From Macrostomum hystrix (taxonomy: Eukaryota; Animalia; Platyhelminthes), in NCBI GenBank assembly GCA_950097015.1, contig CATNEN010000038.1, positions 2,604,001 through 2,668,000 on the forward strand: a stretch of DNA of 64,000 bases. Direction: 5' to 3'. A model generated the notes under the pieces. The model was not told the origin of the DNA and searched no databases. It was given only the letters and a program-made list of their open reading frames with translations. A program made the translations under genes and the position numbers. Positions 4,501-63,460 of the stretch are shown piece by piece; the first letter of the stretch is position 1, and each line of letters starts with the position of its first letter.

Positions 4501-7500
4501 AATGACACGACTGCCGACCATTCTGCACCGGGGCGCGTGGAAGACACTCGACGACAAGATGCTGCCCGTGCACCGACGGCGCTTGTCGAATATGATCACG
4601 GAGGCTTATTACCTGCGCGAGTGCCTGGAGACTATGATCACAAGGAAGGTGAAAGACGGAGTAGATTTCGATTGGCGCAGGAATGTCCGCTGCTATGCTC
4701 GCGACGTCAGTGAGTTTCGCGACTTTTCTCGCTAGGAAAAATACTTTTGTTGTACATTTTTCATACGAAAACCACCAACATAATCTCCCACACTCCCGCC
4801 AGACGAGCAGCAGATCCCGTCGCTGTACATTCAGGATCTTGAGTTCTCCGTTGGTCCCGAGTTCATGGGCTCGGCCTCGGTGCTGGCTCCCACACCAATG
4901 ACCGACCGCTGCTTCCTGGCCATGAGTCAGGCGCTTAAGAGTCTATCCGGCTGTCTGGTGCAGGTGAGAATTAGCTATTAGGTTTTTTATAGACATTTTT
5001 GTCCGAGTGACAAAGTGTTATAATCGTTGAATGTCTCGCTGATGTTAAGGGTTGAAGACTTGATTATTGTTCAGAAGGTGCAAATGACAATTTAGGTCGT
5101 GTTCTGGAATTCCTTAAGCTTGCACTGCACCGTTCAGGTGCCGCAAGAATATCAGGGTGAAATCCCAGCCTAGTTAATTCTCGTGAACATGTTTGTTCCA
5201 GTTCAAATAAGTTCCTTGAAATGAGGTAGTGAATTGGTTTAGTGGAATAGGATTTTCTCTTTAGAATACCTAAGTTTTCTTCGATTTTACCGTGTATTTA
5301 CTCCTCTAGTACTCGCAGTAGTCTCCTTTGATAATAACCTCACCACATGCGCCCAGGGTCCCAGCGGCTGCGGCAAGACGGAGACTGTGAAGGGCCTAGC
5401 CCAGCTGCTCGGTCGTCACGTGTGCGTCACTCACGCCAGGAGCTCCTTCGACGCGCAAGCTCTGAGCAAGTTGGTGCAGGGCGTCGTGGCCGACGGCTGC
5501 TGGAGCCTCATCGACGAGGTGCAGAAGCTGCCAGCTGAGGCCACTGGAGTCCTGGTGGATCACGTGCGGTCCGTGTTCCACTCGCTGGCTTCGGGATTAA
5601 ATACCTGCCATCTAGGTGACTCTCACGAGGTGAGGAACAAATCTAAGTCACTGTGCTAGGCCAAGGGAGCTTGGGGTTAGAGCTAGAGTTAGGTTAGAGC
5701 TTCGGTCCTTTGGGACTGCGACGTCGGGAGTTTGAATCTCAGTCCAAGTAAAACAACTTGTGCCCTTGAGTAAGACAATAAGAGTGTAACAAATATAATC
5801 GCAAGAGGGGCTGCGGTAAATTGCAAGACAAGCCCCCAAGCTTTCTCTACGCGTCTGCGCCCCAAGTTGGCTTTGCCGCGGAATCGAACTTATGGACCGT
5901 GGTGCGAGAGGCAAACACGTTAGACTGCTCTGCCACTAGCTCACAGTCTGAACAGCTGACCACGGACTGAACAGCTGACCACGGACTGAACAGCTGACCA
6001 CGGACTGAACAGCTGACCACGGACTGAACAGCTGACCACGGACTGAACAGCTGACCACGGACTGAACAGCTGTACACAGTCTTTGGATTCACAGCGCATT
6101 AACTGCGACTGCTCCACTAGCCCAAATGGGGTCGATGTAACTTTTGTTCGCATACGCAGGTACCAAAAGCTAATTTCATGCCACTTTGAACGATTTCCAG
6201 GTATCCATTGGCTCCTCTGTCGGCTTCCTCATCACTTACAATCCGTTCAACCACGCTGGCCAGCTCCCCTGCGAGATCCGTGCCTACTACCGGCCCGTGT
6301 CCATCAGCCGGCCGGACCTGCTGCAGGTGCTGAAGATGAAGTGCCTGGCCATGGGATTCCGGGCGCCAACCTTGTTGGCCACACGGCTGAAGCTCATGTC
6401 GGAGTACGCAGCCGACCAGCTGTGAGTTGCACAATTTCCTGCAGTATGAGCACCGCGTCAGTATTCAGATTTAATTACTATATGCACTTTTCATTTTGCA
6501 CTTTTCATTTAGGCCGAACGAGCCGCAGAACACTTTCGGCTTGAACTCGCTTTGCGCTGTGCTGGCCCGAGCCGATCAGCTGCGCCAGATTGCCAACGAG
6601 GAGGCCGTGAATCGGCAGGACTCGACTCTTGGCCAGCCGGGTGCCGGCGCTGCTACTCAACAGCAGCAGCAGCAGCAGCAACAGGGTGAGAGAGGCAGGT
6701 GGTTTCACAATGGGAGTTAAACGCAAGAGAAACTTTGCGCAATTTTTCCTGAAAATTTCAGAAGATTAAGTGGCCTTTGGTTTATTGTACACTAATTTTC
6801 ATCCGTGCATGGAGCCTGAGTTGTAGAATGTACACTGTTTCCGCTATGGAGGGGTAGGAAGTAAGGGAAGGGGCGGAGGTTTTGAATGTACAGTGCTCTG
6901 TTATCTAGGGGTAGGAGTTAAGAGAGATGGTGCTGTGGAATGTACAGTGCTCTGTTATCTAGGGTAGGAGTTAAGAGAGATGGTGCTGTGGAATGTACAG
7001 TGCTCTGTTATCTAGGGTAGGAGTTAAGAGAGATGGTTCTGTGGAATATACCTCATGAATTGAACCTACAAAATTTGCAGCCCAGCAACAACAGCAGCAG
7101 CAGCAGTTAACTTCATCAGAATTTTGGCCTCCGTTCAAGGAACGCACCGAAATCATCACTAACAGAGCTACAGGTAAGATTGTATGAACTCATCTTAGTG
7201 CTCGATGCTACAGATTAAATGAGCGAAGTTAGTAGCTCACCGCTTGTTATTGCTCAAATTTTCATACAGGCCAGAAGCTGCCCACCTTCGTAAACAAAAA
7301 GACGGCCTCCAACCTGCCTCTGAGCGCCGCGGCCAAGCAGGAGCACAGCATGGCTCGCCAGGCCGCCCTGGAGCTGCTGGAGCCACGCGTTCGCCCGCAG
7401 AGCGTCAGTATTCTGCGCCAGGCTGTCGCCGACGTCTTCGGCGGCCTGCCTCCGGTGTCGTCCAGTGCGGTGGCGCGGAAAACGGCAGACATTTTGGACC

Positions 7501-10500: not shown

Positions 10501-13500
10501 TTTTGCGTCTTGCAAGCTTGGAAATCAATCCTTGCTAATTTACCTCTGTCCACGCTTATCTGGGCCAGTCAGCGTGAAGCATCGAAGACTACAAAATATT
10601 GAAATCCCAGCTCAAAACACTTCCAGACTCCCCGATGACGATCGGGAAATCTGCATCTACGATTATTACGTTGATGAGAGCGGCGAATGGGATCCGTGGA
10701 CGTCACGAGTACCGGAGCTCATCAACACCGACGACCTGGCGCTGTCCGGTCAGGCGCTGGTCGAGACAGTGGACACCATCCGGGTGCAGCAGCTGCTGGA
10801 CTTGTCCTACAAGGCGCAGCGGTCGGTGCTGCTGGTCGGACCTCGAGGCGGCGGCAAGACGCTGCTTGGCCGGCAGTTCGCCGAACGGCAGGACTCCCAG
10901 CTCCGGCTGTTGCGCCAGCTGGTCTATTCGGGTGACACCGAGGCAGCCACGCTGCAACGGTTTGTGCAGGCCAACACTGTGCACAGGTGAGCCTTTGTGC
11001 CGTCATATTATAGAGGCGTACTCAGGAACAGCGGATTGTACATCTGCTCAGAATTTTTCATCGTCATGGAGTGAAAACTTTCACCTGCCGAACAAGTCCA
11101 ACCCCAAAAATGAATGTGGCCTTGCCATTAGAACTAGAGTCGAAACGCGTTGCCATAGTAACGCTGAGTCAACATAGCGCGAGTTCTTCACATGAAAGTC
11201 TATAAAATGTTGTCATGTGCAAGGACGCGTAAATAGCAGTCAGCTGGCTATAGCCGTGCGGCTATGACAGACTGACGAGGGCAAACAAGCCCAGAACCGG
11301 TCTCAGTCTGCCGCGCATGGTTTGACTGCTTTTAGCGGCTGATAGCGATATATTAAGATAGAGTTCTAGCTTTTTCATTGTAATTTCCAAACCCAAATTG
11401 CTCACTCCAGACAAGGCTTCGTCTATGGAGCCAAGGAGGGCAAGCGGCTGCTGTTGTGCATCGAGGACGTCTCGGCCCCCAGACCGGACTCATTTGGCAT
11501 TCAGCGCCCCGGAGAACTGCTGCGCCAGCTCTGCGACTGTCACCAGCTTGTCACTCAGGAGCGACCGCACGAGTGGCGCCAGATTGAAGGTCTCTCAGTG
11601 GTGGCCTCGGCTGCCACTGGTGGCGCGCCGGCCGTGCCGACGCCGTCGCTGTCGCCCCGTCTGTTGCGGCACTTCAACCTCGTGCACGTGCCCGCCCCGG
11701 CCAAGGACGCGCTGAGAAGTGTCGTGCGCGGCGTGCTTGAGTCTCAGGTATAGGCAAAGATTTACTTTCAACCGATTGACTAAATAGGAACGCATTGTTT
11801 CTTATTTAAAACTATATTGTCTTGGTTTTTCATTCACTGCCAGATGAACTTCGATGATCGCCAGCCGCTTGAACAGGACGCCCTGGCTAGCCTAATGGAG
11901 GCCTCCTGCCAGCTGCTGGAGAGCTGCCAGGCCACCCTAAAGCTTTCACCGCTGCCTGGCCGGCGGCACTACCTGTTCAACCTGAAGGACTTGTGCGACG
12001 CATTCCTGTGCCTTCGTAGGCTGCCAGACGAGAGGCGCATCGAGCTGACGGACCTGGTGCCCTACTGGGTATACCAGGTGCGCCGGGGCTTCGCCGATCG
12101 CGTCTGTCGCACAGCCGACGCGCTCTGGTTCAACGAGACACTCGAGCAGCTGTGCGCCAAGCACTTCCCGTCCATCTCGGTGGATCTGCTCAGCCAGCAG
12201 TTCGCCACGTTTGACAAGAACGTGCAGAGCTTCAACATTAGACCGACTTCGTCGTTCAACAGAGCCTCCATCTGCGTGAGCAGCCTCATGCCGAAGATTG
12301 AGTCGTTCGATGAGCTCAGAGAGACCCTGGATATTTACAAGGTGAGCAGAGTCTTTTGGGGATTATTTATCGGTCCATGTGAATCCGTTGAAACTAAAAA
12401 AGCTCAAAGTTATTCTACTCCCTAATAAAATACGAGTATCAATGAACTTGCCACTCGCCCATTGGTTTGCAGACCCGCTACAACGAGGAAGAAAAGCACG
12501 AACCACTCGAAGTTACTCTCTCAGAGACCGTTATCGCTCACATTGTTCGCGTCCATCGCGCCCTGTCCGTCCCGTACCGTGGTCACGTGATGTTAATAGG
12601 CTCCATCGGCACCAAGCTGTCCACCTTGTGCCGCCTGGCCGCCTTCATGCTGGAGATGCGGGTTCAAGAGGCCGACACGAGATCGCGCAACGCCTTCTTC
12701 GACAGTCTCCGCGGAGCTCTCCGCCTGGCCGGCTTGGACGCCGTCCACGTGGCCGTGATCGTCACCGCCCGCTGCATGATGGACAGCGTCTACTGGGACG
12801 CCATCAACTCCATCATTGCGTGCGGTGAGCACCCGCAGCTCTTCACCAACGAGGAGATGGACACCCTGATGCAGTCCCTGGTGCCAACCATCAAGAAAGA
12901 GAACCAGGCTCTGCTAAACGACCCGGTGAAGTTCTACCTGTCCAGAGTGCGGCAATACCTGCACTTTGTCATCTGTCTGCCTCCCAGTGATCCTCTTCTA
13001 TGCGCGGCCGTCACCAGCTACCCCTGCCTGCTCAAGCACAGCCAGGTGAACTGGGTAAACGACTGGTCTATGCAGACGCTGCTGCAGGAGGCGCAGCACT
13101 TCTTCGGCGCCAATCAGCAGCTGAACCTCAGCAAAGAGGACGCTGACGCCCTGGGCCGCGCCTTCGCCCAGGCGCATTCGCTAGTGCTTCGCGAATTCCG
13201 TCAGGTGCCCTGGGCGGGCGACCAGGAGCTCGAGGTCGAGCTCACAAAGTACAAAGAGAGCCGCAGCCACTCCAAGCAGGAGACGCTGCGCGTGCCAAAC
13301 CGACCGTATGCGCAGAAGGTTCGCTGCCCCCAAATAGGGAATTCAGTAGCTTGGGGATGCTGTGGTTTCATGACTACTAAAGTACGATGAGCCACTTGAC
13401 ACAGTTGCATCTTCACCTTATCAATTCCTTTAGTAGTCATTGTGTAAGCCCCAGCCAATGAAGAGGCAATTCTGCTCATTCAGTCGACTACAATGCACAC

Positions 13501-29069: not shown

Positions 29070-32000
29070 ATGGGCTTTCTAAGAGTAATTCTGTTCTTCT
29101 TCAGGACTGCAGGTAAATGCATATAAGCTGCCGAGACTTTTACTGCTAACTTTATGTTAATAAATGAGCTCTTTAGTTATATTGGATTTCTTAATTCAAT
29201 GACTTAGGGAACAATAAGTCTATCGCAGTAAAGTTCTGGCTTCACTACTTGAAGCTACTTCACTACTCACTACTAAAATCTAGCTTGTGAAGTTTCAGGC
29301 TTGTTAAGTATCTAGCTTGTTAAGTATCTAGCTTGTTAAGTATCTAGCTTGTTAAGCTTTTAGCTTGCGAATCATCTATCGCTTGTGAAGTTTCTAGGTT
29401 GTAAGTATCTAGCAAGTAAAGTTTCTAGTTTGTGAAGTTTCTAGCTTGTGATGTTTCTAGCTTGTTAAGTTTCTAGCTTGTGAAGTTTCTAGCTTGTGAA
29501 GTTTCTAGCTTGTTAAGCTTTTAGCTTGCGAATCATCTATCGCTTGTGAAGTTTCTAGGTTGTAAGTATCTAGCAAGTAAAGTTTCTAGCTTGTGATGTT
29601 TCTAGCTTGTTAAGTATCTAGCAAGTAAAGTTTCTAGCTTGTGAAGTTTCTAGCTTGTGAAGTTTCTAGCTTGTTAAGCTTTTAGCTTGCGAATTATATA
29701 TGGCTTGTGAAGTTTCTAGGTTGTTAAGCATCTAGCAAGTAAAGTTTCTAGCTTGTTAAGTATCTAGCTTGTGAATTTTCTAGCTTTTGAAGTTTCTAGC
29801 TTTTGAAGTTTCTAGCTTGTGAAGTTTCTAGCTTTTGAAGTTTCTAGCTTGTGAAGTTTCTAGCTTGCGTATTATCTGTGAGAGATACAATTCAGACTAC
29901 TGACAACAGTAGAAATGCAAAGACTTGGCTGCAAAACTCTCACATAAAACTAAAAAAGTATCGCCATAAAAATGGCAAGGTTAAAAGAGACTTCTGTGCA
30001 CACTGAGAGTGGTGGGAGAGGACGGCGTGTGGCTATGGCTGACTGACGAAGGCAAACAAGCCAGAAACCGGTCTCGGTCTGCCAGCGCCAGGTTCGTTTC
30101 CCACTTTTAGTTTGTTACATTATCTATGGCTTGTGAAGTTTCTAGCTTGTTAAGTATCTAGCTTGTGAATTTTCTAGCTTGTGAAGTTTCTAGGTTGGTA
30201 AGTATCTAGCAAGTAAAGTTTCTAGCTTGTGAAGTTTCTAGCTTGTGAAGTTTCTAGCTTGTGAAGTTTCTAGCTTGTGAAGTTTCCAGCTTGTGAAGTT
30301 TCTAGCTTGTGAAGTTTCCAGCTTGTGAAGTTTCTAGCTTGTGAAGTTTCTAGCTTGTTAAGCTTTTAGCTTGCGAATTATCTATGGCTTGAGAAGTTAC
30401 TAGCTTGTGATATTTCTATGGCTTCTAAGGCTTGTATCTATGGCTTGTGAAGTTTTCCGCATCGCCACCGACGCACGTAAAAGAAGCTCGCTGCTTGTGC
30501 ATAGAAAAACTCGCCGTTCATTCGCTTGCATTAAAAGGCGGATTTCGAAATATCTATATTACAATATAGGTGACGTGTCACACCTTGGTGTGATAGACTG
30601 GAACAGATTATTAAAGCGGACTAATACATAAGCAACAGACAAGAAAAAAGTGGATAGAATAGAATAGCAAAAGCATCAAACCTCTGAAATTCTCAAATTG
30701 TTTATTGTTTAAGAGCAGGAGAGGTGCACGAGAGTAAAACACAGCAAGCTCACTAAATGCTGAATACACAAGCTCGAACCCATTCAATTCACAGCGCTGT
30801 TCAGCTGCGGACTTGGACAATTCACGCAGAACGGTCCGGTACTGCTAGCTGAGGACTACAGCAGCACAATGCTCAACGAGTCAACTGGGACGGCTTCTCC
30901 GAGATCTGAACTCTACTGCCTCGACCGCTGCTTGAGCCTAGGTTGCGCTCTGGTCAGTCTCAGCGCTGACAATCGTCAGTGCCAGTTTGCTGTGCTCAAC
31001 GACGCTTCCACAACGGCCGGGCCGCCGGGCACTCACGTGCGACGACTGGTGGGCGCCGAGGCCGGCTCGCGGCTGTGGCAGGCAGTAGATTTTGGCGAGC
31101 AGCTCCGCACCAAAGCCGTTGCACGAGTGTTTACCAGTGAGCTGGCACATCGTTTGGTGACACTAGAACCGCAGCCAGCGAGGATCGCAGTTCTGCCCTT
31201 TCCGCAGCACACACACACACTCACACACACACACACACACGCACGCAGATACCGTACGCAGACAGCTCAACAGGTATATCTGCCCTGACTTTCTCATCGT
31301 TAAGACCTTGAAGGTTGGCCCTCGAGGGCGTAAATTGCACGACAAGTCCCCAAGCCTTCTCTCCGCGGCTGCACCCCAAATCGAGATCAGGGACATTGGT
31401 GCGAAAATCAAATGCGTTTCTCTCTCTGCCAATGACCCTCTTGATTAGACTATAATACTTCGCGTTCGGTACATGAAGGGTAGAGAAAAGGCGCTTTCTT
31501 TTCAAGCAATGACAGGCAACCCGACCCAGCCAATCACTACCAAGAGAGAAGCCAAATCCCGGGGGGGGAGAAATGTTTCATAGATTAGATGTTCTGCAAT
31601 ACCCAGTTGCTCATTTCTTGCCCACAGTTGCATCATACTGTGATTTCGATTATCTTCACAAGACCAGCTTCGTACATAGAAGTCAATAGAAGCTCGCGTA
31701 CCCATCGCAGATAGCAGCACTGGTCGGGTTGGAAGCGTCCAGAACTACACCGTGCAGTTCACGGCCTGCTACCGTATCGAAGCCTTCGGCGCCAGGGGCG
31801 GCTCGACCAATCCCACCGATCCCGTGGGCAACGTCTCTCTGGGTGGCCTCGGCGCCAAGGTGTCTGGCAAGTTCCTGCTCACCAACGGCACCGTCTTGGC
31901 CATCGTCGTCGGTCAACGTGGAGGCGACGCTGCCGGTATGTACCGTGTGACTCCCTCTTATGGCTACCTGGAGTTTTCCGGCTCCGGGGGCGGTGGCGGC

Positions 32001-32928
32001 AGCTTTGTGTACCGCAGATCGGACAACTCGCTGCTTCTGTCTGCTGGTGGCGGTGGAGGCGCCACCAATCACTGGCGCCCGGGTAAGAAATACGAGCGTA
32101 CAGGAGCGGAATTCAGGGTAACATTGTAGACTGTGATCTAGATTTATTAGCAAATGGCTATTGGCAAAGAGTTTTAAAATGGACAAGTCACTTTGAGACA
32201 ATAATGGGCAGGGTAGCTTCTATCGGGTCACATTTTTCAAATAATTCAACGCACACTCTACAACACTGAGTGGGCAAAAAGAAGACTTTGATTTCGGCTA
32301 AGTTTTGCTGTCAAATTGCTGATGTAATTTGCCAATATATATTATAATGACCTATGACGGACGCACTATTGCAAATCACAGGATCACTTTCGTGAATAAA
32401 TTTGTTGTTGTAAGCCTTTTAAACAATGATACTAACTCTTAAGGAAATCCTGGGCAGGCGTCAAGAAATGGAACGGACACCAACGGGAAGCATGCTGAAT
32501 ATAAAGGCTTCGGCGGGGTCAACGGAAACCCAGGCCTGATCAATACCGCAGGCGCCATTGCCTACTACAAGTTCGGGGGCGCCGGCGCTGGATGGCTCGG
32601 CAAGTGCAGCGTTCTGCCCAGGACCGGTGACGACGCCGATAGCGGCGGCAGCCTAGCCGACGCCTGGCTGGGTGGACGCGGCGGTGCCACCAACAACTCG
32701 GCCGCTGTCGGCGGCTTTGGTGGAGGCGGAGGCGGCGGTGAAGCCTGCGGCGGCAGCGGCGGTGGCGGCGGTTACAGCGGCGGCGGTGCCGGCAGCGCTT
32801 GCGACCAGTCGGGCGGTGGCGGTGGCTCCTTTTGTGCTGGCGCCGGCTGCAATGCCACGACGGGTGGCAACACTCTTAGCGATCAGGGCCTTGTGGTGCT
32901 GCAAATGCTAGGCCCTAGCTGTGGCTGA
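29070..32928 (+). CDS. Secreted PAN/apple-like + ALK/LTK-type glycine-rich domain protein
   Basis: Exons 29070-29112 (MGFLRVILFFFRTA, signal-peptide-like), 30795-31136 (CLDRCLSLGC...CQF), 31711-32082 (QNYTVQFTACYRIEAFGARGG, IVVGQRGG, GGGGGSFV, LLLSAGGGGG), 32444-32928 (GGAGAGW, GGFGGGGGG, GGGGGYSGG, GGGGGSF, TGA); all introns phase 1; no TM helix or kinase. Confidence 0.82.
29877..30119 (+). mobile_element. 243-bp TG...CA element with 5-bp TSD (TTATC) carrying a hammerhead motif; solo-LTR/retrozyme-like
   Basis: Uninterrupted array motif GAATTATCTATGGC (~30375); here TTATC|TGTGAG...GTTACA|TTATC. Confidence 0.65.
30024..30089 (+). ncRNA. Type I hammerhead ribozyme-like motif
   Basis: CTGACGA (30043-49), A-GGC-AAACAA-GCC-A, GAAA, CCGGTC (predicted cleavage after 30073); stem I GGCTGA/TCGGTC plus GGCGTGTGGC/GCCAGCGCC. 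Confidence 0.72.
31208..31445 (-). mobile_element. tRNA-derived SINE (family A) with (CA)n tail, intronic
   Basis: CTGCCCTGACTTTCTCATCGT and GTAAATTGCACGACAAGTCCCCAAGCCTTCTCTCCGCGGCTGC match the 62201 copy. Confidence 0.75.
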
Positions 32929-33319: not shown

Positions 33320-36300
33320 GGGGCTCAGAACGGCGGTCGCAAGTCTACTGTGATTTGTCGCCTTGGCTCAAGCTACAGACATTTTTTACTTTAAGCGAAA
33401 ATTAAAACAAAAACACGAACTCTCGAACCAGAGTGTATGTCCGACTCTGACGCCGAGCTATGCTTTAAAAAATGTGCGGGACGAATTCGTCAATGATTTG
33501 CTACTGAAGAAACTTTTAAAGTGTGTTCTGCCGGCTTTTTCAGATGCGTCTTATGATCCTATTTCTGCCTCACCTAAAGGCATGGGTCAATTATTTCACC
33601 AGATACTGCTACAACTGCTTGACGCATGTCCCTGCTACACAATGACACCTCAGACACACAAATTATTCAAGTACTTTTTCAGATATTCTCATTTAAAGTG
33701 TGCTTTCTCTGCTTCTTTGCTACTTTTGACACGGCACACTGCTGGAAAGTTGTTTTGTGATTCAAGAAGTCAAAACGCGTTTTTTTAGAGTTTGGAGTTC
33801 ATTGAAAAATATTTTGGCACTATTATCAAAGCGAATTTTCGTATTGGGTATAGTAGGCAACGAATGATTAAATGTATACAAATGTTCGGACGATTTTAGG
33901 GTCATGTCATAAATACTAATCGTCAAGGGACTAGAGCCACGTACATAAGTCAATCAGGGAACAAATATTAAATGTCAAGTTGACTGCAGTCGACGCAGAC
34001 ACTTTTTTCCGTTGCAGATGCTGGCGACTCCAACAGGCATTGTGCATCCAGGGGCATTCGATCTGGCCAAAATGGGAGGTTTGCAACCGAACCTACACGT
34101 GACGTACATGTACTTTTGCAAGCACTACTTATGCAGAAAACTTACCCACTGAATGGCAGTGTGACGTTGTCACTTGTTGAAGGCGCCCCTGCAATATTAC
34201 TCTATGCGTTGATGTCATGCTTAATTTCCTAATTATGTACTAGCTTGGGCCGTTTTAACTCATCGTATAATATCATTCAATTCTGTTAATTTATATTATT
34301 AAGTCAAATTATTAGGGCGCTACTGTTAGTAACCATAAACGCATATCGCGCCATGCTAGCAATTTCCTACGCGTATCTTAATGTATTTCCCCCCGGCCAA
34401 TGAGCGTGCGAGCTCTGGCTGGCCGGAAGTATCGATCGCTATGTTTTGCAGTCTGCCTAGTTTACTTAACTGAGGGCTTTGGGCCCGCTCGCGCCTCACA
34501 CGCGCCCCCTCCATTGCGCACTTTCATTCTCACTCTCGCCCTTCTACGTTTTCATACTGTGCCATTCTCTCGCTACACTTCACTACATTCGGTTCTGTTC
34601 TTGTTTAACACTCACCATTAACGAGCTCCTACGCCTTACATAACACCCTGCTTGTCGACGTCCCAGTGCATCCAGAATAAACGTGCTACCGCTACACCAC
34701 CGACATTAAATATTGAAATCAACTCAGAATTGCTGAAAACTACACTCGCCGACGCTCTGACTTCGACTTCGTCCTTTGTGTTAAATCGTCACAGCAGCTA
34801 TCTTTCGACCAGGTGGCTCCTCTTTACCGCAGGCATGACATGTCTTCTGATCGGCACATTCGGAGAAGTTTATGATTGCCGTCTTTATTATTGTCCTCGC
34901 CACGGAAAGCTTTCGTTGAATATTAGATAGGACTGTACATGAGTCTAGAAGAAGGCTTCTACCAAACAGAGAGACGAAGACGCCTGTACACGAAGATATT
35001 CAGAGAATATCTGAAAAAGTACTTGACTAATTTGTGTGTCTGTGGTGTCATTGCGTAGCAGGGACATGCGTAAAGATGTGTGTAAAATTTGATGTCACAT
35101 GTGAGGCAGTGAATAAATTAGGACATTTTTAAATTCCCGCCACTTTTCCTCACGCGCTAGCTAAATATCGTAATCTCACGCAGAGCTCTTTGTTCGTAAT
35201 ATTCGCTCTAAAGTGGAAACATGCACCTACCCCAATTTCTTTGTATATATAGAGGAAAATATAAATGCGATCTTCAACCTGCTCCCTCGCTCCCCTCATA
35301 CCAATAACACTGGTTAAACCTACTATACGTTCTCGACGAAATATAAGCGATTAAACTTCCTAACTCTTTTCCTGTTTCGCTATAAAATAGACCGAGTTCC
35401 TTAGTTATTTTCCTAATAAAAGGAAAACAGTTAAATATACCTTTGCCTTCCAAATCCTCTCCAAAAGATCTCTCGTCGGCCTTCTTTACCCAAATCCACC
35501 CTAGCTATTATATGATCCCTTTGAAATCCCAATATACCGTCCTAAAATCCCGACCAAAAGTCCATCTGAAGTCTATCCGAAGTCCACCTAAAAATCCCTA
35601 AATACCCCCACTGAAGTCCCAAAACTCCGCCTTTATCCCTCTTGAGACTGTACTAATCTCGGACCCCATAGAGGAAAGTAAGTGAGAGTGCGAAGGACGT
35701 TCACCAGGCAACTTCAATCCATCCTGATACGCCCCACGGACAGTGCCCCAGATCAGTGACCCAAGCCCTCGTGCCAGCAACAGTAAATTCCGCTCCCATC
35801 GTTAGTAGCTAGTGTCCTGCCGCTCGGGCATTAGCGCTACCTTAGGTATAACCCGAACAGCGTGGAAAATACCTATTCTCACCCTCATAACTTACGCTAC
35901 CATTCCCCCCAAATACTCAGCTCACCAATCCCAAATCCAACAAATAGAGAGAGAGCTGAGAGGTCTGCCACATGGATCAAGTATACGGTCACAGCACTCA
36001 TTTGTTTAATGTCAATGGTATAACGAAAGACGCAAAGAAGCAGAGAGAGCACACTTTAAATGAGAATATCTGAAAAAGTACTTGAATAAGTTTTGTGTCT
36101 GAGGTGTCATTGTGTAGCAGGGACATGCGTCAAGCAGTTGTAGCAGTATCTGGTGAAATAATTGACCCATGCCTTTAGGTGAGGCAGAAATAGGATCATA
36201 AGACGCATCTGAAAAAGCCGGCAGAACACACTTTAAAAGTTCATTGTCAAAAAGTCAAATCATTGACGAATTCGTCCCGCACATTTTTTTAAAGCATAGC

Positions 36301-36741
36301 TCGGCGTCAGAGTCGGACATACACTCTGGTTCGAGAGTTCGTGTTTTTGTTTTAATTTTCGCTTAAAGTAAAAAATTGTAACACTTTCCCTCAACAGTAC
36401 GGTATTTCAAATTAGCGGAAGGGAAATCAGTTTACTTTCGGACAATACACTCGCCTCACGCGCTGTCGCTCCGAAAAACGTTACCGCTCGATGCTCGCAG
36501 TGTAATTCAGTTTAAAAAATTATTTTTGTTTACAATTTAAAACAAATGTATTGCGAATACTCGAATATTGCGAAACTATTGATAGCGCGAACTTTATCAT
36601 GTAAAAGAACTATTAAAAACATAATGATACATTAGAATCGAGCTCGCGTGAAAGCGGCAAACCTCAAAGTACTACAAAATGTCTGTAGCCTGAGCCAAGG
36701 CGACAAATCATAGTAGACTTGCGACCGCCGTTCTGAGCCCC
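33320..36741. mobile_element. Non-autonomous element with ~400-bp terminal inverted repeats (foldback-like)
   Basis: 33320-33720 is the reverse complement of 36032-36741 (minus a 300-bp insertion); ends GGGGCTCAGAAC.../...GTTCTGAGCCCC; extra partial arm copy ~35003-35070; no transposase ORF or TSD seen. Confidence 0.75.
36377..36676. mobile_element. 300-bp solo LTR
   Basis: TGTA...TACA ends, 4-bp TSD AAAT; empty site visible in the opposite TIR arm (33375-33395); ATTAAA ~60 nt before the end. Confidence 0.75.
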
Positions 36742-37470: not shown

Positions 37471-37693
37471 TGTATGCAGTCAAAAAGATTCTTAGGCCTA
37501 ATCACAAAAATTAGATAGAGGCTGAAAAAATGTCCCTCCCTTATATACTAAAAGCTCACTCAGCCACGTCAGCTTCATTCTATTGCAGTTGCCACATCAT
37601 ATTAAACATCTCTGTGGATGCGCGAATTCAAATCCATTTGAAAAATAATATCGCAAAGGAAACCTCCACATTTCCAAAAACTTTAGTGTGCTA

Positions 37694-39037
37694 GGGTAAT
37701 GTATCATCAACCAAACAAGAGTGTGTATTTTTTTAACTTCAAACCTAAGCTACAGATTTTCTATTTAAGATATGATGATAAATCCAAAGCCAAGTTATAG
37801 AAAACAGTTATACATCTTTCTAAAAAGTAGGGTAATGTATCATCAACCGAACAGTGTATCTTCAAAACCGAACAAGAATTTTGACTCCTTCCTTGGTCTC
37901 GTGCAAGACAGAAACAAGCTATTGTGTTTCACAGAACAACTAATTTGAAAGTTGAAAAAATTATCTACAAGCTGAGGCATGATGTGCAATGAAGCATTAA
38001 GAGGAAAAAAAGATATTGATGTTTCAGTAGAAATTTTTATTGCAAAAGCATACTTTTTAACAACATTTTTTCAGTATGTACTTTAGACAAAGATTGTATG
38101 CGGTTGCTTGCCAATTAAATGACCATAAATGTAGTTATTTATAGAGCATGAAAAATGCTTTCAAATGACATAATTCATGATAGATCACTTCTTAAAAATA
38201 AGATTAAACCACTCACTCAAATAGTAAAACCAAACATCAAATTCTCTGTTTGGTTTGAAGATACATGAAAATCATTGTTTGGTTTTAGATAAAAAGCAGG
38301 AATAACATTTTTTCTATTTGTCAAAATAGCAAAAGCAGATACTTTTTAGAAAGATGTAACTGTTTTCTATAACTTGGCTTTTGATTTATCATCATATCTT
38401 AAATAGAAAATCTGTAGGCCTAGCTTAGGTTTGAAGTAAAAAAAATACACATTCTTGTTTGGTTGATGATACATTACCCTATCTGCTTTTGCTATTTTGT
38501 CAAATAGAAAAAAGTTATTCCTGCTTTTTATCTAAAACCGAACAATGATTTTCATGTATCTTCAAACCAAACAGAGAATTTGATGTTTGGTTTTACAATT
38601 TGAGTGAGTGGTTTAATCTTATTTTAAGGAGTGAACTATCATGAATTATGTCATTTGAAAACATTTTTCATGCTCTATAAATAACTACATTTATGGTAAT
38701 TTAATTGGCAAGCAACCAGATACAATCTTCGTCTAAAGTACATACTGAAAAAATGTTGTTTAAATAAAGGTATGCTTTTGCAATAAAAATTTCTACTGAA
38801 ACATCAATATCTTTCTTTCCTCTTAATGCTTCATTGCTCCTCATGCCTCAGCTTGTAGATAATTTCTTCAACTTTCAAATTAGTTGTTCTGTGAAACACA
38901 ATAGCTTGTTTCTGTCTTGAACAAGACCAAGGAAGGAGTCAAAATTCTTGTTCAGTTTTGAAGATACACTGTTTGGTTGATGATACATTCTTATTCTTAT
39001 TATTATCTTATTATCTTATTATCTTATTATCTTACCC
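37694..39037. mobile_element. ~650-bp MITE (TIR GGGTAATGTATCATCAACC, TA TSD), outer copy
   Basis: TA|GGGTAATG at 37694; right TIR split by a TTA/TTATC-type simple repeat before ACCC|TA at 39037. Confidence 0.8.
37830..38479. mobile_element. Same-family MITE inserted in opposite orientation into the outer copy
   Basis: TA|GGGTAATG...CATTACCC|TA; empty site AAAAAGTATCTGC reconstructable from the inner copy. Confidence 0.85.
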
Positions 39038-41657: not shown

Positions 41658-43038
41658 TGAGGGGTGTTCCAAAGGTCCTTTCCCTTTTGAACATAGCTCT
41701 TGCAATACCGCTCAGATTTGAGTGCAGTTTTCGTAACTTGGCAACTAAACTACAAGTATTAGCACAAGTTTTTTTGTCGAAAAATATAGTATAAGATCAA
41801 GTTTTAAACAAACAGAAACTGATTTTAAACAATGTGCATGGCGATAGAGTTACACAGATTTAAAAAATTGTCTAGGGTTGATGAGCGTCAGAAACAGCAA
41901 CCAGCAACAAATCAAACAAACAATGGTTGCTGCAAGCATTTTTCCTGTCCAATTGAACTGTCACTCATCATTCATTACTGTCAGGAGCAGCAGAAGCTTT
42001 CTCCACAAAGCCACCAGCAAGATTCAAGCATTTTTGCCATCTTTAGTGCAAGGCATCAATGGCACCTGCAAACTCACTCCAACGGCGAACAGCGGCGAAC
42101 CTCCCGTTCCAGGTCATCCTGACAAGCAAATACATGGCCTCTGAGGAGTCTCTTGAGTGATGGAAAAATGGCAAAGTCACAGGGTGCAAGATCGGGGCTG
42201 TATGGCGGATGCTCCAAGACTTGAAATCCCAGCTTGGCAATGGCAGCCTGGGTCTGGGCAGCAGTGTGCGGACGAGCATTATCGTGAAGGACAAGAAAAG
42301 GCTTGGGTCCAGTCCTGCGCTTATTCCGAATGTCCTCCTTTAGCTTAGTAAGGATCTGGACGTAGCGCCCCGAGTTAATGGCCGAGCAAGCTGGCGGACT
42401 GTCATGCGAGCATCTTCATCCAGGAGTGCCTTGATGCGAGGGGCCAGTTCATTGTTGAATGAATTCATTGGGCGACCAAAGCGAGGTTGATTACCAAGTT
42501 CCACCTGGCCAGCCTCAAAGCGGTCGATCCAGTTGCGCAGTGCGGATGCTGATAGCGTGGTTCTGATGAGCAGCCGCTAGTGCTTCATGAATCTTGGTGG
42601 GAGTCAGGTGATTCTTCCATAGCGTGAAAATTGCTGCTCGCTGGGCCTCAGCGCTATGAGCATCGATTAGAGATTTTGATGACGATGGGGTAGTTAAACT
42701 GAGCTTTCTAGGATCACAGTCCTAACTTTTAGGTGAAATTAATCTCAGATGGTTTGACGATCTTTTGGTAAAAAATCACTAGCTTTTGACTTCTCTGTTG
42801 CAGTGGGTCAGCAAAAAATTAATAGCAACACCTGTGTGTAAGTCTATCCCAAGGTGGTCTAGGGCAAAAATGTACTCTAGACAAAAATCAATAATAGATA
42901 GGAAAAATGCTCAAATTACAAAACGTTTGAGCTAAAGTGCATCTTTTTATAGTCGAAAACCGCACTCAAATCGGAGCAGTATTGCTGCGAGAGCTATGTT
43001 CGAAAGGGAAAGGGAAAGGACTTTTGGAACAGTCCTCG
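41658..43038 (-). mobile_element. Mariner-family transposon, internally deleted (pseudo-transposase ~41995-42680)
   Basis: TA-flanked TIRs (TGAGGGGTGTTCCAAAGGTCC / GGACTTTTGGAACAGTCCTCG); minus-strand WIDRFEAG, PRFGRP, LHDNARPHTA, HPPYSPDLAPCDF, RWQKCL; first catalytic Asp region missing; stops and frameshifts. Confidence 0.88.
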
Positions 43039-43326: not shown

Positions 43327-46300
43327 ATGGCCAAGTATCCAAGCAGCCAACCACACAGTGTGTTAGTGCTGTCTGCAATCATTATTGTCTGTTTGGCCTA
43401 CTTGTCCCCATGGCTGCCAGCAGTGACTGCCAAGATTTCAGCCGCACCGCCAGACACTGTCCAGCTGCCGCTGCATCGATTCGGCAGTAAGACAGCCTAC
43501 AGAAATGTGGAGAAGCTTGCACCAGAGCTTCCACCTCCTGTTGGCGTTGCTGACGGATGCGTGGCTCGCCAGCTGCTCATGCTGCTCAGGCATGGCTCGC
43601 GAGGGCCATCAGTCAAGCAGGTGAGTGGGTCAACTGAGTCACTTTGCTTTATCTAAATTAACTTCCTCACCTCCACCGTTCTCTCACCTATGTTCTCCCC
43701 TCAACTTTGCTGTTCTCTTATCTGTAGCTATTATCTAAATTGGTAAACTTGAGGTATTTACATTTATTATCCTCTCGCCTCTATTTTCCCCTAATCTCTA
43801 TTCTCCCCTCGTCTCTATTCTCCCCTCACCTCTATTCCCCCCTTATCTCTATTCTCCTCTCGCCTCTATTCTTCCCTCATCTCTATTATCCCCTTATCTC
43901 TATTATCCCCTTATCTCTATTATCCCCTTATCTCTATTATCCCCTTATCTCTATTATCCCCTTATCTGTATTCTCCCCTCACCTCTATTCTCCCCTCACC
44001 TCTATTATCCCTCATCTCTATTCTCCCCTCACCGATCGCAACCCAATAACTATATTCAGGTTCGCCGCGCCGAGGTAATTCTGCACCGCCTGACCAGCGC
44101 ATTCCGGCCGGATCCGATGTTCGCCAAAGCCGCCGCCGCCTGGTCCAGCCCATTCGCCCTGACCGGAGGCGGCAAAAGCCTTAGCAATGTCGGCCACCAG
44201 GAGCACGAATTGATTGGCAGTCGGTTAGCGCTGCGCTATCCTAATCTGTTTGCTAGCCACGAATCTATCGCCGTGCTCAGCTCCAGCTCCGAGCGAGCCT
44301 TCGAAAGTGCCAAAAGTTTTCTGCACGGCGCTGGTCTAACAGACGCTGACATCGCTGTGCAACTCGCCAACGGCCACATCAGATTTTATGACGAGTGTCA
44401 TCGATTTAAGGTTCGTTTTTCGATAAGCTATTGTTTAATAATCGATAAGAACTTTTTTTATAACTAATTAAGACGTTTTTATCGTCCTAAAAATGTATTC
44501 GATAAATATCGACCGATGATAAAAATATATCGATAGGTGACACTAGACCCGCAGCCAACGAGAAAGTAATTCTGCCTACTTTGCTGATTCCTGAGTACAC
44601 ACGCACACATATCCGTATGCATGTATACACCGGTTGTGTAACATCTGTCTTGACCTTCAGGCAGTCGCAGTGTACATTCATTGCACCTTGGCGGTTGGCC
44701 TTAATGGGCGTAAATTGCACGACAAGCCTTCTCTGGCTTTGCCCTAAAATAATGTAGCCTCGCCGCAACAAACAGCTAGTATTGCTTTTTTCGATACATA
44801 TAGCTTTTCTCGTGATTCAAGGCCACCATTGACAACGGTCCTGACGGCAATCGGGAGTATCGACAGTTCTTGGCCGGCCCGGAGCTCCGAGCTGCCACCA
44901 AGGCAGTCCAGGAGCGCCTGGGCCTGACGGACATCGATTTGAGCGCTGCAGATCTGGCCATGGCATTTAGCCTGTGCGGCATGGAGCTGGCTAATAATCT
45001 CACGGCTCCAGGCGACAGTCCCTGGTGCCGCCTTATCCAGGAGCCGGGGGCCCACGAAGCCATCGAGTATCTGCTGGGTGAGGCTGGTCTTTTATTACAA
45101 CCTATGGGTTCTTTTTGCAATATTGGGATCTGTTTTGGACTAGTGGGATCTTTTTGGGACCATTGGGATTTTGGATTTTGTTGGGACTATTGGGATCTTG
45201 TTAGGACTATTGGGATCTTGTTAGGACTATTGGGATCTTTTTAGGACTATTGGGATCTTTTTAGGACTTTTTGGGATCTTGTTAGGACTATTGGGATCTT
45301 GTTAAGACTATTGGGATCTTTTTAGGACTATTGGGATCTTGTTAGGACTATTGGGATCTTGTTAAGACTATTGGGATCTTTTTAGGACTATTGGGATCTT
45401 GTTAGGACTATTGGGATCTTGTTATGACTAATAGGATCTTCTCGGGACTAGTGGGATCTTGTTACGACAATTGGGATCTGTTTTGGGACTTTTGGAAGAC
45501 TTTCGAGTTCCTTGTACGAGTATGAGTATCGTAAATATCATTGAAGGACCTTTTTTGTAGCACAAATCCATTTGTGGATAGTAGCACAGACTAACGGCTT
45601 ACACTACAGTGTAAGCACTGTAGTCTTCAAGTGTCAAGTATGAAACACTTGCAATATTATTTCAGACCTGAAGCACTACTGGCGCAAGTCGCACGGCTAT
45701 GAGCTGAGCAACCTGATTGCTTGTCCCATGGTGTCAGATCTGGCCTTGAATTTGATTCGGGCCGCCAACCGAGAGAAGGCCGGAGGTGACGCCTCAGCTG
45801 ATGCTCCGGTGGCCAACTCGACGGTGCTCTACTTTGGCCACGCCGAGACCCTGTTCCCAGTGCTCGCTAGGTGCGAATAGGGGTGGTGTAGTGACCGACT
45901 GGAAGCATTGTGGTTTGGTAATGACCAACTGGAAGCATTTTGGTTGGGTAATGACCAACTGGAAGCATTTTAGCTGGGTAATGACCAACTGGAAGCATTT
46001 GGGTAATGACCATCTGGAAGCATTTTGGTTGGGTAATGACCATCTGGAAGCATTTTAGTTAGGTAATGACCAACTGGAAGCATTGTGGTTTGGTAATGAC
46101 CAACTGGAAGCATTGTGGTTGGGTAATGACCAACTGGAAGCATTTTGGTTGGGTAATGACCAACTGGAAGCATTCTGGTTTGGTAATGACCAACTGGAAG
46201 CATTTTGGTTGGGTAATGACCAACTGGAAGCAATGTGGTTGGGTAATGACCATCTGGAAGCATTTTAGTTAGGTAATGACCAACTGGAAGCATTTTGGTT

Positions 46301-49157: not shown

Positions 49158-50933
49158 TCATCGGCATTGCTATCTGCAACTGTCGGCAGCCAAAAAGAGG
49201 CTGAAGACAATGATGAGCGCGGGCCTGCTCGGACTGCAACTAGCAGGGCCTGTACACAGGACCGCAAACGCAGCTCTGAGAATAGAGTATTGCAGGCTAA
49301 GGTGAGTGATGTGCTGTTAATGAGGCTTATTTTCACTATTTAGTGTGCTGGTAATGGCCTGCTCTTTCCTTGCAGCTTCGCCGTCTCGCTCGCCGCAGCC
49401 TAGACGGCGAGGCGTTGACGCCTGACGAAGAGGCCGAACTGCACCGTCACGCCGAAGCCTGTGAGTTGTTCAACGCCCGCCTCCTACAAAGCCGCGCCTC
49501 TCGCGCTGCACGCCAGTCACGCGCCAAATTAGCGCCAGATTCGGCGCCAGATGTTGAAGCCAAAGTGGATCGTTTGGCGCACCTGCTGGCTGACTGCGGA
49601 CAGCGTGGCTGCGTTGTGTACACAGGAGCTGGAGTCAGCACCGCGGCCGACATTCCGGACTATCGCGGACCCGACGGCATGTGGACGCGGCTGCCGCGAG
49701 GCTCCCTGCCGCGGTTTTACCTGCCCGGCGTGTCTGATGCCCGCCCGACCTTTGCTCATCGCTTCATCGCTGCTCTGACTGCTCACAACTCATCGCCTGG
49801 GAGCATTCCTACGGAAGCTTGCGATTTGTCACCAGCGCCTCACCCGGCCTCCTCATCATCGGCCGGACTCCCAGCTTCCTCATCATCGGCCGGACTTCCA
49901 GTTTCCTCATCATCGGCCGGACTTCCAGTTTCCTCATCATCGGCCGGATTTCCAGCTTCCTCATCATCGGCCGGACTCCCAGCTTCCTCATCATCGGCCG
50001 GACTTCCAGCTTCCTCATCATCGGCTGGACTCCCAGCTTCCTTATCATCAGCCGCATCTATCGAGCTGCCATTAGTCAGTCACGTGGTGTCGCAGAATTG
50101 CGACGGCCTGCATCTCCGTTCCGGCATTCCGGCGAGTCGCCTGTCCGAGCTGCACGGCAATGTTTTCTTGGAGGTGTGCGACATCTGCCGTCGTCTTGTC
50201 CGTCGCCGATTCGATGTCACTGAGCGGAGCAGACTGAGACGACACGCCACTGGTCGGCTGTGCGGTGGCGACTGCCCTGGCCGCTTGCTGGATACCATCG
50301 TGCACTTCGGCGAGTTCGGCCGCCAGTGCACCGCCGACCGGGTGTACGAGTGGCGTGCCGCTGAGTCTGCAGCGTCCGGTGCCAGACTGATCCTCTGCAT
50401 GGGCACCAGTCTGCAGGTGATTTCCTTGTTGCCATTTCCCTTCTCTAATACGTCATTTCCCTATTTCAATGTGCCATTTCCTTGCTCCAATATACAATTT
50501 CCCCTACTCCAGTATGTCATTTTCATACTGCAATATTCCATTTCAAACGCTGATGTCACAGTTTCCTAAATTGAATGTCCCGCTTGTTAAATAAGAAATT
50601 TAATTAAATTTCTATACTCCAACTTGCATAAAAAATGAGATCTCAGTAAGCTTACTTAGCCAAACAAATCCGTCTCAGGTATTGCGTCACTACAGCTCGC
50701 TATGGCCCCCAAAAGTGCCACTGGTGATTGTCAACCTACAGCCGACGCCTTTCGATCGTCGCGCCCTGATGACCATCCGTGCCGACTGCGACTCCGTCTG
50801 TCGCCAGCTCGCCCAACGGCTGGGAGTTCGCGTGCCTGACTACTCGACTGACGAGGATCCCCTGCTGGCTGCCTGCGAGCCGCTGGCGGAGGAAGACCGG
50901 GCGATCGTGTCTCGGCCTGACATTCGCGCTTGA
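49158..50933 (+). CDS. SIRT7: Class IV sirtuin, SIRT7-like NAD-dependent deacylase (start codon not found in exon 1)
   Basis: Exons 49158-49301, 49376-50416, 50679-50933; VVYTGAGVSTAADIPDYRGPDGMWT, HVVSQNCDGLHLRSG, LSELHGN, CxxC...CxxxC, DTIVHFGE, GTSLQVL, IVNLQPTP; basic helical N-terminus as in SIRT7. Confidence 0.88.
49845..50053 (+). repeat. In-frame 30-bp coding minisatellite (PASSSSAGLP-type x7) in the sirtuin domain
   Basis: CCAGCTTCCTCATCATCGGCCGGACT repeats within the open exon. Confidence 0.85.
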
Positions 50934-53224: not shown

Positions 53225-56200
53225 ATGGATGCAATGGTGACTGCAGATAACGAGGAAAATAACTCCGACTCCAGCGCATCCTCGGTGGCCAGCAGCGACT
53301 GGCTTCAACTCGAGATGCTTCTGAATTTCTCGCCGAGGAAGCAGCAGCAGCAGCTGCAGTTTCCGGTTGCTGTTGAAAAAGATCCGACAGTGGCTAGTAG
53401 TCAAGTAGTCAAGACTGTCCAGAGACGGAAGAGCCTAGCTGGCCAAGCTGCCAGTGCCGATTCAGCTAATCAGGAATCGAGCCCTAAACGCGTGGACATC
53501 TCCGAGTACGTCCGGATACTTCAGAGGCTCAGGGGACGGCGAAACCTCCTGGGTATGGACCAACAGCAACAGCAGCGCCTCAAGGCTGCCCAGAAACGCC
53601 TGCGGCAGATACTTTCGGCCGCTGACGATGACGCCAGTGCGCAGTTGGAGGATGCCGACGCCGACAGTATTGAAGACGTCGACGAGGAATCTCCGACATC
53701 GAAGACGCTGCTCGACTGCAGTACGTGGAACTCCAACAGTCTGGTGGCTGCAGCCACGGCTCAGCAGAGACCGTAAGCGTCTTTGCCGAAACATTTTTGC
53801 TGACTTGTTAAGCGTCGAGCTTGTTGACTATCCAGAGCATGTATTCATCGAGCTTGGCAATAGTATCGATCGTGCTTGGCTTTAGTATCGATTGAGCTTA
53901 GCTAGAGTATCGATCGTGCTTGGCTATAGTATCGATCGAGCTTGGCTTTAGTATCGATCAAGCTTGGCTATAGTATCGATCAAGCTTGGCTTTAGTATCG
54001 ATCAAGCTTGGCTTCAGTATCGATCAAGCTTGGCTATCGTATCGATCGAGCTTGGCTTCAGTATCGATCGTGCTTGGCTATCGTATCGATCGAGCTTGGC
54101 TTCAGTATCGATCGTGCTTGGCTATCGTATCGATCGAGCTTGGCTTCAGTATCGATCAAGCTTGGCTATCGTATCGATCGAGCTTGGCTTCAGTATCGAT
54201 CGTGCTTGGCTATCGTATCGATCGAGCTTGGCTTCAGTATCGATCGTGCTTGGCTATCGTATCGATCGAGCTTGGCTTCAGTATCGATCGAGCTTGGCTT
54301 TAGTATCGATCGTGCTTGGCTTTAGTATCGATCGAGCTTGGCTTTAGTATCGATCGTGCTTGGCTATAGTATCGATCAAGCTTGGCTTTAGTATCGATCA
54401 AGCTTGGCTTCAGTATCGATCAAGCTTGGCTATCGTATTGATCGAGCTTGGCTTCAGTATCGATCGTGCTTGGCTATCGTATCGATCGAGCTTGGCTTCA
54501 GTATCGATCGTGCTTGGCTATCGTATCGATCAAGCTTGGCTTCAGTATCGATCGTGCTTGGCTATCGTATCGATCGAGCTTGGCTTCAGTATCGATCGTG
54601 CTTGGCTTTAGTATTGATCAAGCTTGGCTTTAGTATCAATCAAGCTTGGCTTTAGTATCGATCAAGCTTGGCTTCAGTATCGATCAAGCTTGGCTATAGT
54701 ATCGGTCAAGCTTGGCTTTAGTATTGATCGAGCTTGGCTTTAGTATCGATCGAGCTTGGCTTTAGTATCGATCGAGCTTGGCCATTGTATCGATCGAGCT
54801 TGGCTAGAGTATCGATGGAGCTTGGCAAATCGTTTTGTGTATTCTGTCGACACCAGAATGTCATGTTCCGATTTGTTTCGTAATGGCCACCTGTTCTTTT
54901 TTCTTCAGTTCGATTGAATCGATCGGCAAAACTGGCAAAGAGCACCTGAAAGAACATCTAAATAAAGAGGCTTCAAAAGCTTCTTCCGCAGTCAAAGATG
55001 AATCTCAGCGCGAAGTAGCGACCATCGATCAGGTAGCGATTGATTCTATCGCATTCGAACCGCAATCCAACCCCGAGGATCAGGGTGCACAAGCGCCAAT
55101 CGCCACGGGGGGATTGCTGCTTAGAGGGCGTGGCAACATGCAATCGACGATGTTGTCGCAGACTGACCTGCCTGTGGAGGTGCTGAGGCCTTCTAAAGCC
55201 AAAAAGAATCGGCGGAATCGGTCTCAGCAGCAAATTTCCAGTGGGATCATGGGGCCGAAAACTTCCCCAGGCCAGTCGCTGCCGCCCTCGGGCCTGCGGT
55301 CACACCTGGCCCTAGCCCCGCTGGTGTCGTGTCGCCTGTCCGAAATGGTGCTTTCGATGGCCTTCGACCCTGTTGGCCGCAGATTGATCTGCTTTCAGCC
55401 CAACCGCGGCATCTCCTTCAGGGCCATCACTGGCTCCGGAGACGACCTGGAATCGTGCGAGCAGCTCAACTGGCGCATCTGGGCCCGCAGTATCTCCGTC
55501 CTACCCTCCGGACACCTGCTTGTGGCCAATCCGGGCTTTCTTCAGGTAGATCGCTTTTGGGCTACAATACTCAAATTGTAACAATGCGACCTACGATTGG
55601 GGCCCGACATTGGAGTCGCAAAGTGGTGCGCTAACAGTAGATTGACCACGGGAATATGGACATTGTTTTCAGTATCTCCCAAAATATTCAACCAATCGCC
55701 AATAAGACCCAGACCTGGGCTAAAATTTTCCGTTCGGGCGGAATTTTCCGCTCTTCACATGAAACAACTTCCAGAATCACAAAACATCGGCGTCGTGAAG
55801 ATAATCAACGATTCTCGTCGAGGTGTCTGGTGGCAAAAACCACCAATGTAGGCATATTTTTTCTTACAAAATCCATCGTAAAACCATGTGTATTACTTGT
55901 ATATTGTTACGTTTTATATTTTTGGACCAATATGGATTAGCCATCGAGGTTAATACAGAGCAATGTTAGCTGTCCTTGTCACAGGGTCTTCGACTAGAAT
56001 CGCTGAGTATCTCGATGATTCTGACGTCTGAGAGCTTAGACAGCTAGTTTATCGTAAAGTGCGGAAAATTTCGATTGAACGGCTTTTACGAAAATCGGTC
56101 ATTTGTTTGGTGTCTATTATAGGGGGGGGTCGGTGGCAGAGCGGTTATCGCGTTTACCTCTCGCACCACGGTACCTAAGTTAAATTCCACGGCGAGGCCA

Positions 56201-63454: not shown

Positions 63455-63460
63455 ACCTTA

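Follow-up and report, generated by a model that had tools for sequence, protein, structure and literature searches.

The window, that is, the whole 64,000-nucleotide stretch of Macrostomum hystrix DNA analysed here, is animal-like, because it carries an intron-split dynein heavy chain gene together with DEG/ENaC, ALK/LTK-type and Sir2 exons (Table 1). Protein searches with a dynein exon gave no match at the cut-offs used. Tandem repeats are very dense in the window (56 rows), and a SINE-like family with a tRNA-like head is found at 62201-62730 and again at 5816-5937, 31315-31384, 44708-44764 and 56123-56267. The SINE-like copies at 62200-62730 are two, placed tail to tail in inverted orientation, and a reversed 50-nt piece of the tail of this repeat (62364-62414, 62528-62575; 80% identity) lies at 11037-11087, ~170 nt upstream of the second hammerhead described below. 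Large nested inverted repeats with arms 94-100% complementary occupy 33320-36741 and 37692-39002 and are possibly foldback or MITE-like DNA elements, and a DDE_3 (Tc1/mariner-type) transposase fragment is found at 42077-42415 on the minus strand.

A 243-bp TG...CA unit interrupts a 16-bp minisatellite, which served as its target, and is bounded on both sides by TTATC. A first-pass annotation had described this insert from the letters of the window, and its coordinates and sequence are confirmed; that annotation had also called the insert unique, and it belongs instead to a multi-copy family seen in public contigs, with a related hammerhead at 11255-11322. When the insert and one TTATC are excised in silico, the sibling array unit at 30373 is recovered with a single mismatch. 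The two ends of the unit form an inverted repeat of 4/5 bp with no extension over 12 bp. Neither AATAAA/ATTAAA nor a TATA box is found on either strand of the unit, so the orientation of the LTR is taken from the hammerhead strand only. The unit as a whole folds with a z of -3.83, a value matched by 0 of 200 shuffles. It is likely that the unit is the LTR of a small retrotransposon, present here as a solo copy.

Table 1. Positions of genes, repeats and insert features in the window.
Feature	Position	Strand	Remarks
Dynein heavy chain gene	1608-26158	+	intron-split exons
Second, related hammerhead	11255..11322	+	within a dynein heavy chain intron; retains G10.1-C11.1; has AGAA for GAAA
16-bp minisatellite (target), left arm	29279..29867	.
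TTATC target site duplication, left copy	29872..29876	+	5 bp
LTR-like unit, TG...CA	29877..30119	+	243 bp; solo copy of a multi-copy family; from sequence, ends fixed in public contigs
TGTGA, left terminal motif	29877..29881	+	4/5 complementary to the right end
Extended hairpin (predicted)	30011..30105	+	hammerhead on top; z -1.89, 8/200 shuffles as good
Minimal type I hammerhead	30024..30089	+	interrupted 15-bp stem I, core, 3-bp stem II, palindromic stem III
ACCGGU palindrome	30067..30072	+	predicted pairing between two hammerheads, duplex -8.3 kcal/mol
tRNA B-box-like motif	30091..30101	+	one mismatch (the invariant A); T4 downstream (30105-30108); candidate Pol III promoter
TTACA, right terminal motif	30115..30119	+
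TTATC target site duplication, right copy	30120..30124	+	5 bp
16-bp minisatellite, right arm	30129..30418	.
ALK/LTK glycine-rich domain exon	31680-32126	+
Sir2 family exon	49355-50569	+
DEG/ENaC channel gene	59798-63457	-

The hammerhead and its A10.1/A11.1 core

The 3' part of the insert holds a type I hammerhead fold, as had been proposed at first pass. It has the CUGANGA, GAAA and UH core elements and stems I-III of this type, and a relaxed type I descriptor finds it as the one match in the window and finds none in 20,000 dinucleotide shuffles of the insert. The core consists of CUGACGA (30043-30049), A30050, stem II (30051-30062), A30063 and GAAA (30064-30067), stem I is formed by the pairing of 30024-30042 with 30074-30089, and stem III is available only as a 2-bp stem or as an intermolecular palindrome. 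Cleavage is predicted after C30073, with 197 nt of the unit upstream of the cut and 46 nt downstream. Folded alone, the hammerhead stretch has a z of -1.11 (29/200 shuffles). In the monomer the lowest-energy fold pairs the core with the palindrome and lies 3.5 kcal/mol below the hammerhead fold. A dimer is probably needed, because the core is of Penelope type with a palindromic stem III, and the predicted folds make it plausible that the hammerhead is gated by dimer formation. The Rfam hammerhead models, which the first-pass annotation had named as a check, gave no match to the unit's hammerhead at E up to 5 or 10; motifs with A10.1/A11.1, missed by Rfam, are undercounted in hammerhead searches.

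The position normally filled by an R10.1-Y11.1 pair is A/A in the window copy and across the 8 public runs compared, with no alternative letter listed at 30050 or 30063 in any of them. A10.1/A11.1 is the usual state of the 243-bp family. In minimal hammerheads G10.1-C11.1 is highly conserved (PMC4209133). Among seven aligned hammerheads the standard 10.1-11.1 pair is absent in four, and of the 10 units of unrelated tandem arrays (L002, L008) that parse cleanly, 7 have A/A; as far as these sequences go, A/A at 10.1-11.1 is a recurring natural variant. The earlier suspicion that the A-A pair marks an inactive copy is, as decay of the window copy, not borne out, given its presence in 8/8 runs and in an unrelated array. 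Work by Lunse et al. 2017 on hammerhead variants may already cover A/A cores.

Across the 8 runs no variant is listed in the core, stem II, the palindrome or stem I, an absence biased by the higher depth there and by the 5% threshold, and the 5' third of the unit varies. In X9, a run from a diverged population, 19 variable positions fall in 29914-29964, against none listed in 30027-30088. Among the seven aligned hammerheads, each of the six proximal pairs of stem I is altered in both of its bases, and 0 of 500 shuffles reach the covariation score, which is inflated by related rows among the seven; the stem I pairs were left unfixed by the search pattern.

The second hammerhead in the window is 84% identical to that of the unit over 69 nt. 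Its locus has in common with the unit only the ribozyme and the downstream box and T-run (module 11255-11340), and no unit bounded by TG...CA ends and a duplication of 4-6 bp is found around it. A family-specific hammerhead pattern had 0 matches in metagenome, viral and prokaryote contigs; a looser pattern matched nine metagenome loci and had 0 matches in viral contigs. None of the nine resembles the 243-bp unit beyond the hammerhead core, and five of them (L001, L004, L005, L006 and L007) were dropped as they look like chance matches in microbial DNA. L003 (148-3746 and 4587-4617) is a Penelope-like element whose second ORF encodes RT and GIY-YIG and whose hammerhead core is near-identical, with A/C at 10.1-11.1; its first ORF is GDSL/SGNH-like. 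In L009 (1-5706) a 3-kb element with two ORFs is repeated in tandem, with a G-C hammerhead between the units; it matches RT weakly, and no endonuclease domain was found in it. L002 and L008 are tandem arrays of 260-300 bp with a minimal hammerhead in each unit, apparently noisy long reads, and the L008 array switches strand.

Copies of the unit in public sequencing runs

Parts of the 243-bp unit were found in 19 public runs from 10 studies, none recorded as RNA, and contigs were compared for 8 of these runs, which come from studies P1, P2 and P3 (P3 being the diverged population; X5-X8 are runs of unrecorded kind). These runs gave 154 contigs that partly match the unit, and junctions were counted among the contig ends listed. 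On the left, at least 48 junction contigs stop at 29875-29877 (among those listed: X3 30, X9 9, X7 3, X1 2, X6 2, X5 1 and X8 1), and on the right at least 11 stop at 30119-30120 (X3 5, X9 4, X5 1 and X6 1). Moreover, in X7 and X8 a whole contig terminates exactly at 30119. The same two ends are found in all three studies. Stops 1-2 bases outside the unit are expected from chance matches to the flank of the window copy, and the flank agreement within the junction piles (0.42-0.59) is the level given by unrelated flanks; a shared flank is possible for at most about 2-3 contigs per pile. The single run X3 contains at least 30 distinct left junctions, a firm lower bound on the copies of the unit, and its summed unit depth is ~1000x that of flank contigs, a ratio not to be taken as a copy number.

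The sole left-flank and the sole right-flank contig listed for X5 share an exact 5-bp duplication, which does not extend to 6 or 7 bp and has a chance probability of about 0.001; we infer that the two belong to one locus. With that pairing, the target duplication is 5 bp at both loci with readable flanks, the window and X5. Every readable copy of the unit is a lone one with unique flanks, and no head-to-tail joint (30119-to-29877) is present among the joints listed for the 8 runs, in which other joints were detected, contigs showing presence better than absence. Fixed ends, a 5-bp duplication, dispersal and the lack of a listed head-to-tail joint together support integrase-type insertion of a fixed unit. 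The LTR-type ends first read from the window copy thus hold up, with TG...CA fixed across copies and an exact 5-bp duplication at a second locus. The constancy of ends that had been set as a check is found in the junction contigs of all three studies, together with some flanked contigs that stop inside the unit. The alternative offered at first pass, a 7-bp duplication (ATTATCT) left by a non-LTR insertion, is rejected because of the junction piles at both ends and the X5 locus.

Flanked contigs ending inside the unit do so at 30101 and 30111 (X3), at 30080, 30096 and 30043 (X9), at 30031 and 30062 (X7), at 29956 (X6) and at 29992; we take two of these contigs for diverged ends or for different repeats that carry a hammerhead. 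Immediately before the left end (29876) the base is C in 20 of the 48 junction contigs listed (p about 0.002), and in the remaining junction piles the majority lines have G, possibly a target preference.

None of the three single 3' flanks that could be read, those of the window, X5 and X6, has a tRNA-like PBS, and no copy with two LTRs is present among the contigs listed; an internal junction shared by many copies would be merged into a single contig with 30 nt of overlap and so fall outside those listed. The X7 and X8 contigs that end at 30119 do so at a branch whose successors are not among the contigs listed. A purine-rich left flank (25/30 purines) recurs in X6 and X7 with agreement at 21 of 30 letters, where unrelated flanks agree at 19 or more in about 6 of 100,000 simulations, and may represent either one shared locus or an internal junction. 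It is not a clean PPT and was not counted as one, since it is possibly a single shared locus.

A candidate animal LTR retrozyme and competing readings

We tentatively favor the reading that the unit is the solo LTR of an animal LTR retrozyme, a non-coding LTR retroelement in which two hammerheads cut the RNA to unit length, a possibility that we hold at slightly less than balanced confidence. From the fixed ends, the duplication at two loci, the dispersal of copies and the conserved hammerhead fold we infer the following cycle. A non-coding master copy would have two LTRs around a short PBS-PPT segment, and its transcript would carry two hammerheads, paired through their ACCGGU palindromes. 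Each hammerhead would cut after position 197 of its LTR, and only as a dimer, and the unit-length RNA would be ligated into a circle, by which one whole LTR is rebuilt. The circle would then be copied and inserted by the reverse transcriptase and integrase of another element, from a lineage that makes 5-bp duplications (Mag-type Gypsy, BEL or Copia). A solo copy, having one hammerhead, would be silent because its lowest-energy fold blocks the hammerhead core, and solo copies could arise by LTR-LTR recombination or straight from copying of the circle. The plant retrozyme model likewise expects solo LTRs from a circular template (PMC4918200). In one preprint, eight of nine predicted animal retrozyme dimers did not cleave. 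The first-pass annotation had proposed a solo LTR of this kind: its LTR-type ends and 5-bp duplication stand, and the retrozyme part is put forward here as conjecture, the core being of Penelope or non-LTR type and possibly a passenger.

A more specific form of the LTR-retrozyme reading, about which we are doubtful, is a hybrid element that joins integrase-type ends to a dimer-gated A/A hammerhead of Penelope type and a tRNA-type box. Only its two-LTR transcript would cut and circularize, and many of the lone copies would have been inserted directly from the RNA circle and not formed by recombination.

The elements most like the unit are the plant LTR retrozymes (Cervera, Urbina and de la Pena 2016, PMC4918200; review PMC7761336), which also have a hammerhead within the LTR, integrase-type ends, a short fixed duplication, solo LTRs and a hammerhead that is blocked in the lowest-energy fold. 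Their hammerhead is of type III, their duplication 4 bp and their LTR ~330-350 bp (PMC4918200), whereas the unit has a minimal type I hammerhead with a palindromic stem III, a 5-bp duplication, a length of 243 bp and an animal host. By its type I topology and its 5-bp duplication the unit falls outside the plant LTR retrozyme family itself. In the full-text literature searched, from which most subscription papers and Repbase are absent, we found no animal LTR element with a hammerhead, and LTR retrozymes are described there from plants only. In that literature, as far as it was available, retrozymes fall into two classes, the LTR elements of plants, whose hammerheads are of type III, and the non-LTR elements of animals, whose hammerheads are of type I. 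A type I hammerhead in an animal LTR does not respect this division, and suggests an exchange of ribozyme modules between elements of the Penelope and LTR types. If the unit does belong to an LTR retrozyme, it offers an animal system, probably within a genus that has a transgenic model species, for asking whether a circular RNA is copied by LTR machinery and whether a solo LTR can arise as a primary insertion. If the hammerhead is dead, the unit is an ordinary solo LTR with captured cargo.

This last case is the one we regard as the main rival, although an unlikely one: a solo LTR that spreads by the linear LTR route and carries a module (hammerhead, B-box-like motif and T-run) captured from a Penelope-type or tRNA-SINE-type element and kept as a promoter, as a hairpin or for no reason. 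The module at 11255-11340 does occur without LTR ends, and that LTR-less copy, together with a hammerhead core like those of the Penelope-type loci (L003, L009) and the tandem arrays (L002, L008), would fit a captured passenger. Cassandra and Ajax are proposed to have arisen when an LTR captured a SINE (PMC10886601). If the 5' LTR were cleaved, the repeat needed for linear strand transfer would be lost (PMC4918200), and an element on the linear route should therefore favor a dead ribozyme. A/A at the conserved 10.1-11.1 pair also speaks for a passenger. Against this, the hammerhead parts are free of listed variants in the 8 runs in which the 5' third of the unit varies, and the A/A units of the unrelated array suggest that this is a tolerated variant.

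It is quite improbable, in our estimation, that the unit serves as LTR to an autonomous Gypsy (Mag), BEL or Copia element with protein-coding genes, in which an active hammerhead makes RNA ends or a circle. The Mag clade of Ty3/Gypsy does share short LTRs and a 5-bp duplication with the unit: Culex Mag elements have 5-bp duplications in 20 of the 21 rows listed and LTRs of 119-304 bp (PMC3286476), and the data on ends are blind to whether an element is coding. Mag is also the largest LTR clade in Macrostomum lignano (PMC12801592), and is plausible as the source of enzymes for the unit. However, no coding region or PBS is linked to the unit, and no RT or integrase domain is present in the 76 window frames scanned, a set that samples the part left of 26,200. 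The named autonomous families of Macrostomum lignano have 4-20 copies (PMC12801592), as against the at least 30 left junctions in one run, and hammerhead motifs had 0 matches in the supplements of that survey (six families, the long cells incomplete), in the main text of which the word "ribozyme" does not occur.

Readings outside the LTR class fare worse. We think it very unlikely that the unit is a non-LTR retrozyme monomer or a Penelope pseudo-LTR, with target-primed reverse transcription as its route of insertion, a 7-bp duplication and TG...CA ends by coincidence. Animal non-LTR retrozymes (Cervera and de la Pena 2020, PMC7229834; Li, Clavereau and Pollet 2026 preprint) do resemble it in their type I hammerhead with a weak stem III, and are likewise of 150-450 bp, non-coding and present in many copies (PMC7229834). 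They are tandem, however, and are without LTR ends and have longer duplications (PMC7229834; above 4 bp, and 15 bp in Nematostella), whereas the unit has ends fixed in three studies, exactly 5 bp at the second locus and no head-to-tail joint listed. The minimal hammerheads of Penelope-like elements (Cervera and de la Pena 2014, PMC4209133) share with the unit's hammerhead CUGANGA, a short stem II and a palindromic 15.2-16.2 region, and have the dimer requirement that is predicted for the unit; in the unit, A/A replaces their conserved G10.1-C11.1. Penelope-like insertions are 5'-truncated and tandem (PMC8557442), and the unit is without this truncation pattern. Among the same 76 frames, sampled left of 26,200, there is no Penelope-like RT or GIY-YIG gene.

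DNA transposons of the Ginger and IS3EU types have longer inverted repeats. A miniature DNA transposon with TGT...ACA ends, mobilized by an integrase-like transposase of the Ginger or IS3EU type and carrying the hammerhead as cargo, would account for copies that are all, where readable, lone units with unique flanks, but is just as improbable as a non-LTR monomer, the terminal inverted repeat being just 4/5 bp with no extension over 12 bp.

A possible Pol III box and the Helenus and Ajax elements

There are no tRNA genes in the window, and a box A-like motif in the unit is not above chance (4,969 of 5,000 shuffles as good). The B-box-like motif is rarer: when it is scored against a consensus in a test made after the motif had been seen, as good a score is reached in 44 of 10,000 shuffled versions of the last 46 nt and in 138 of 10,000 of the whole unit. 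Helenus and Ajax TRIMs (Kojima 2024, PMC10886601) carry Pol III promoters in their LTRs, with tRNA box A and box B expected in the Helenus type; the box B-like motif of the unit is without the invariant A. No hammerhead is reported for them in the available parts of that paper, the main text of which has no mention of flatworms, and animal Helenus elements make 4-bp duplications as against 5 bp for the unit. Like the unit, they have short TGT...ACA LTRs with many solo copies, and the B-box-like motif and T4 of the unit resemble the 3' ends of Helenus LTRs, in which a B-box and then a T-rich run come shortly before the 3' CA (PMC10886601).
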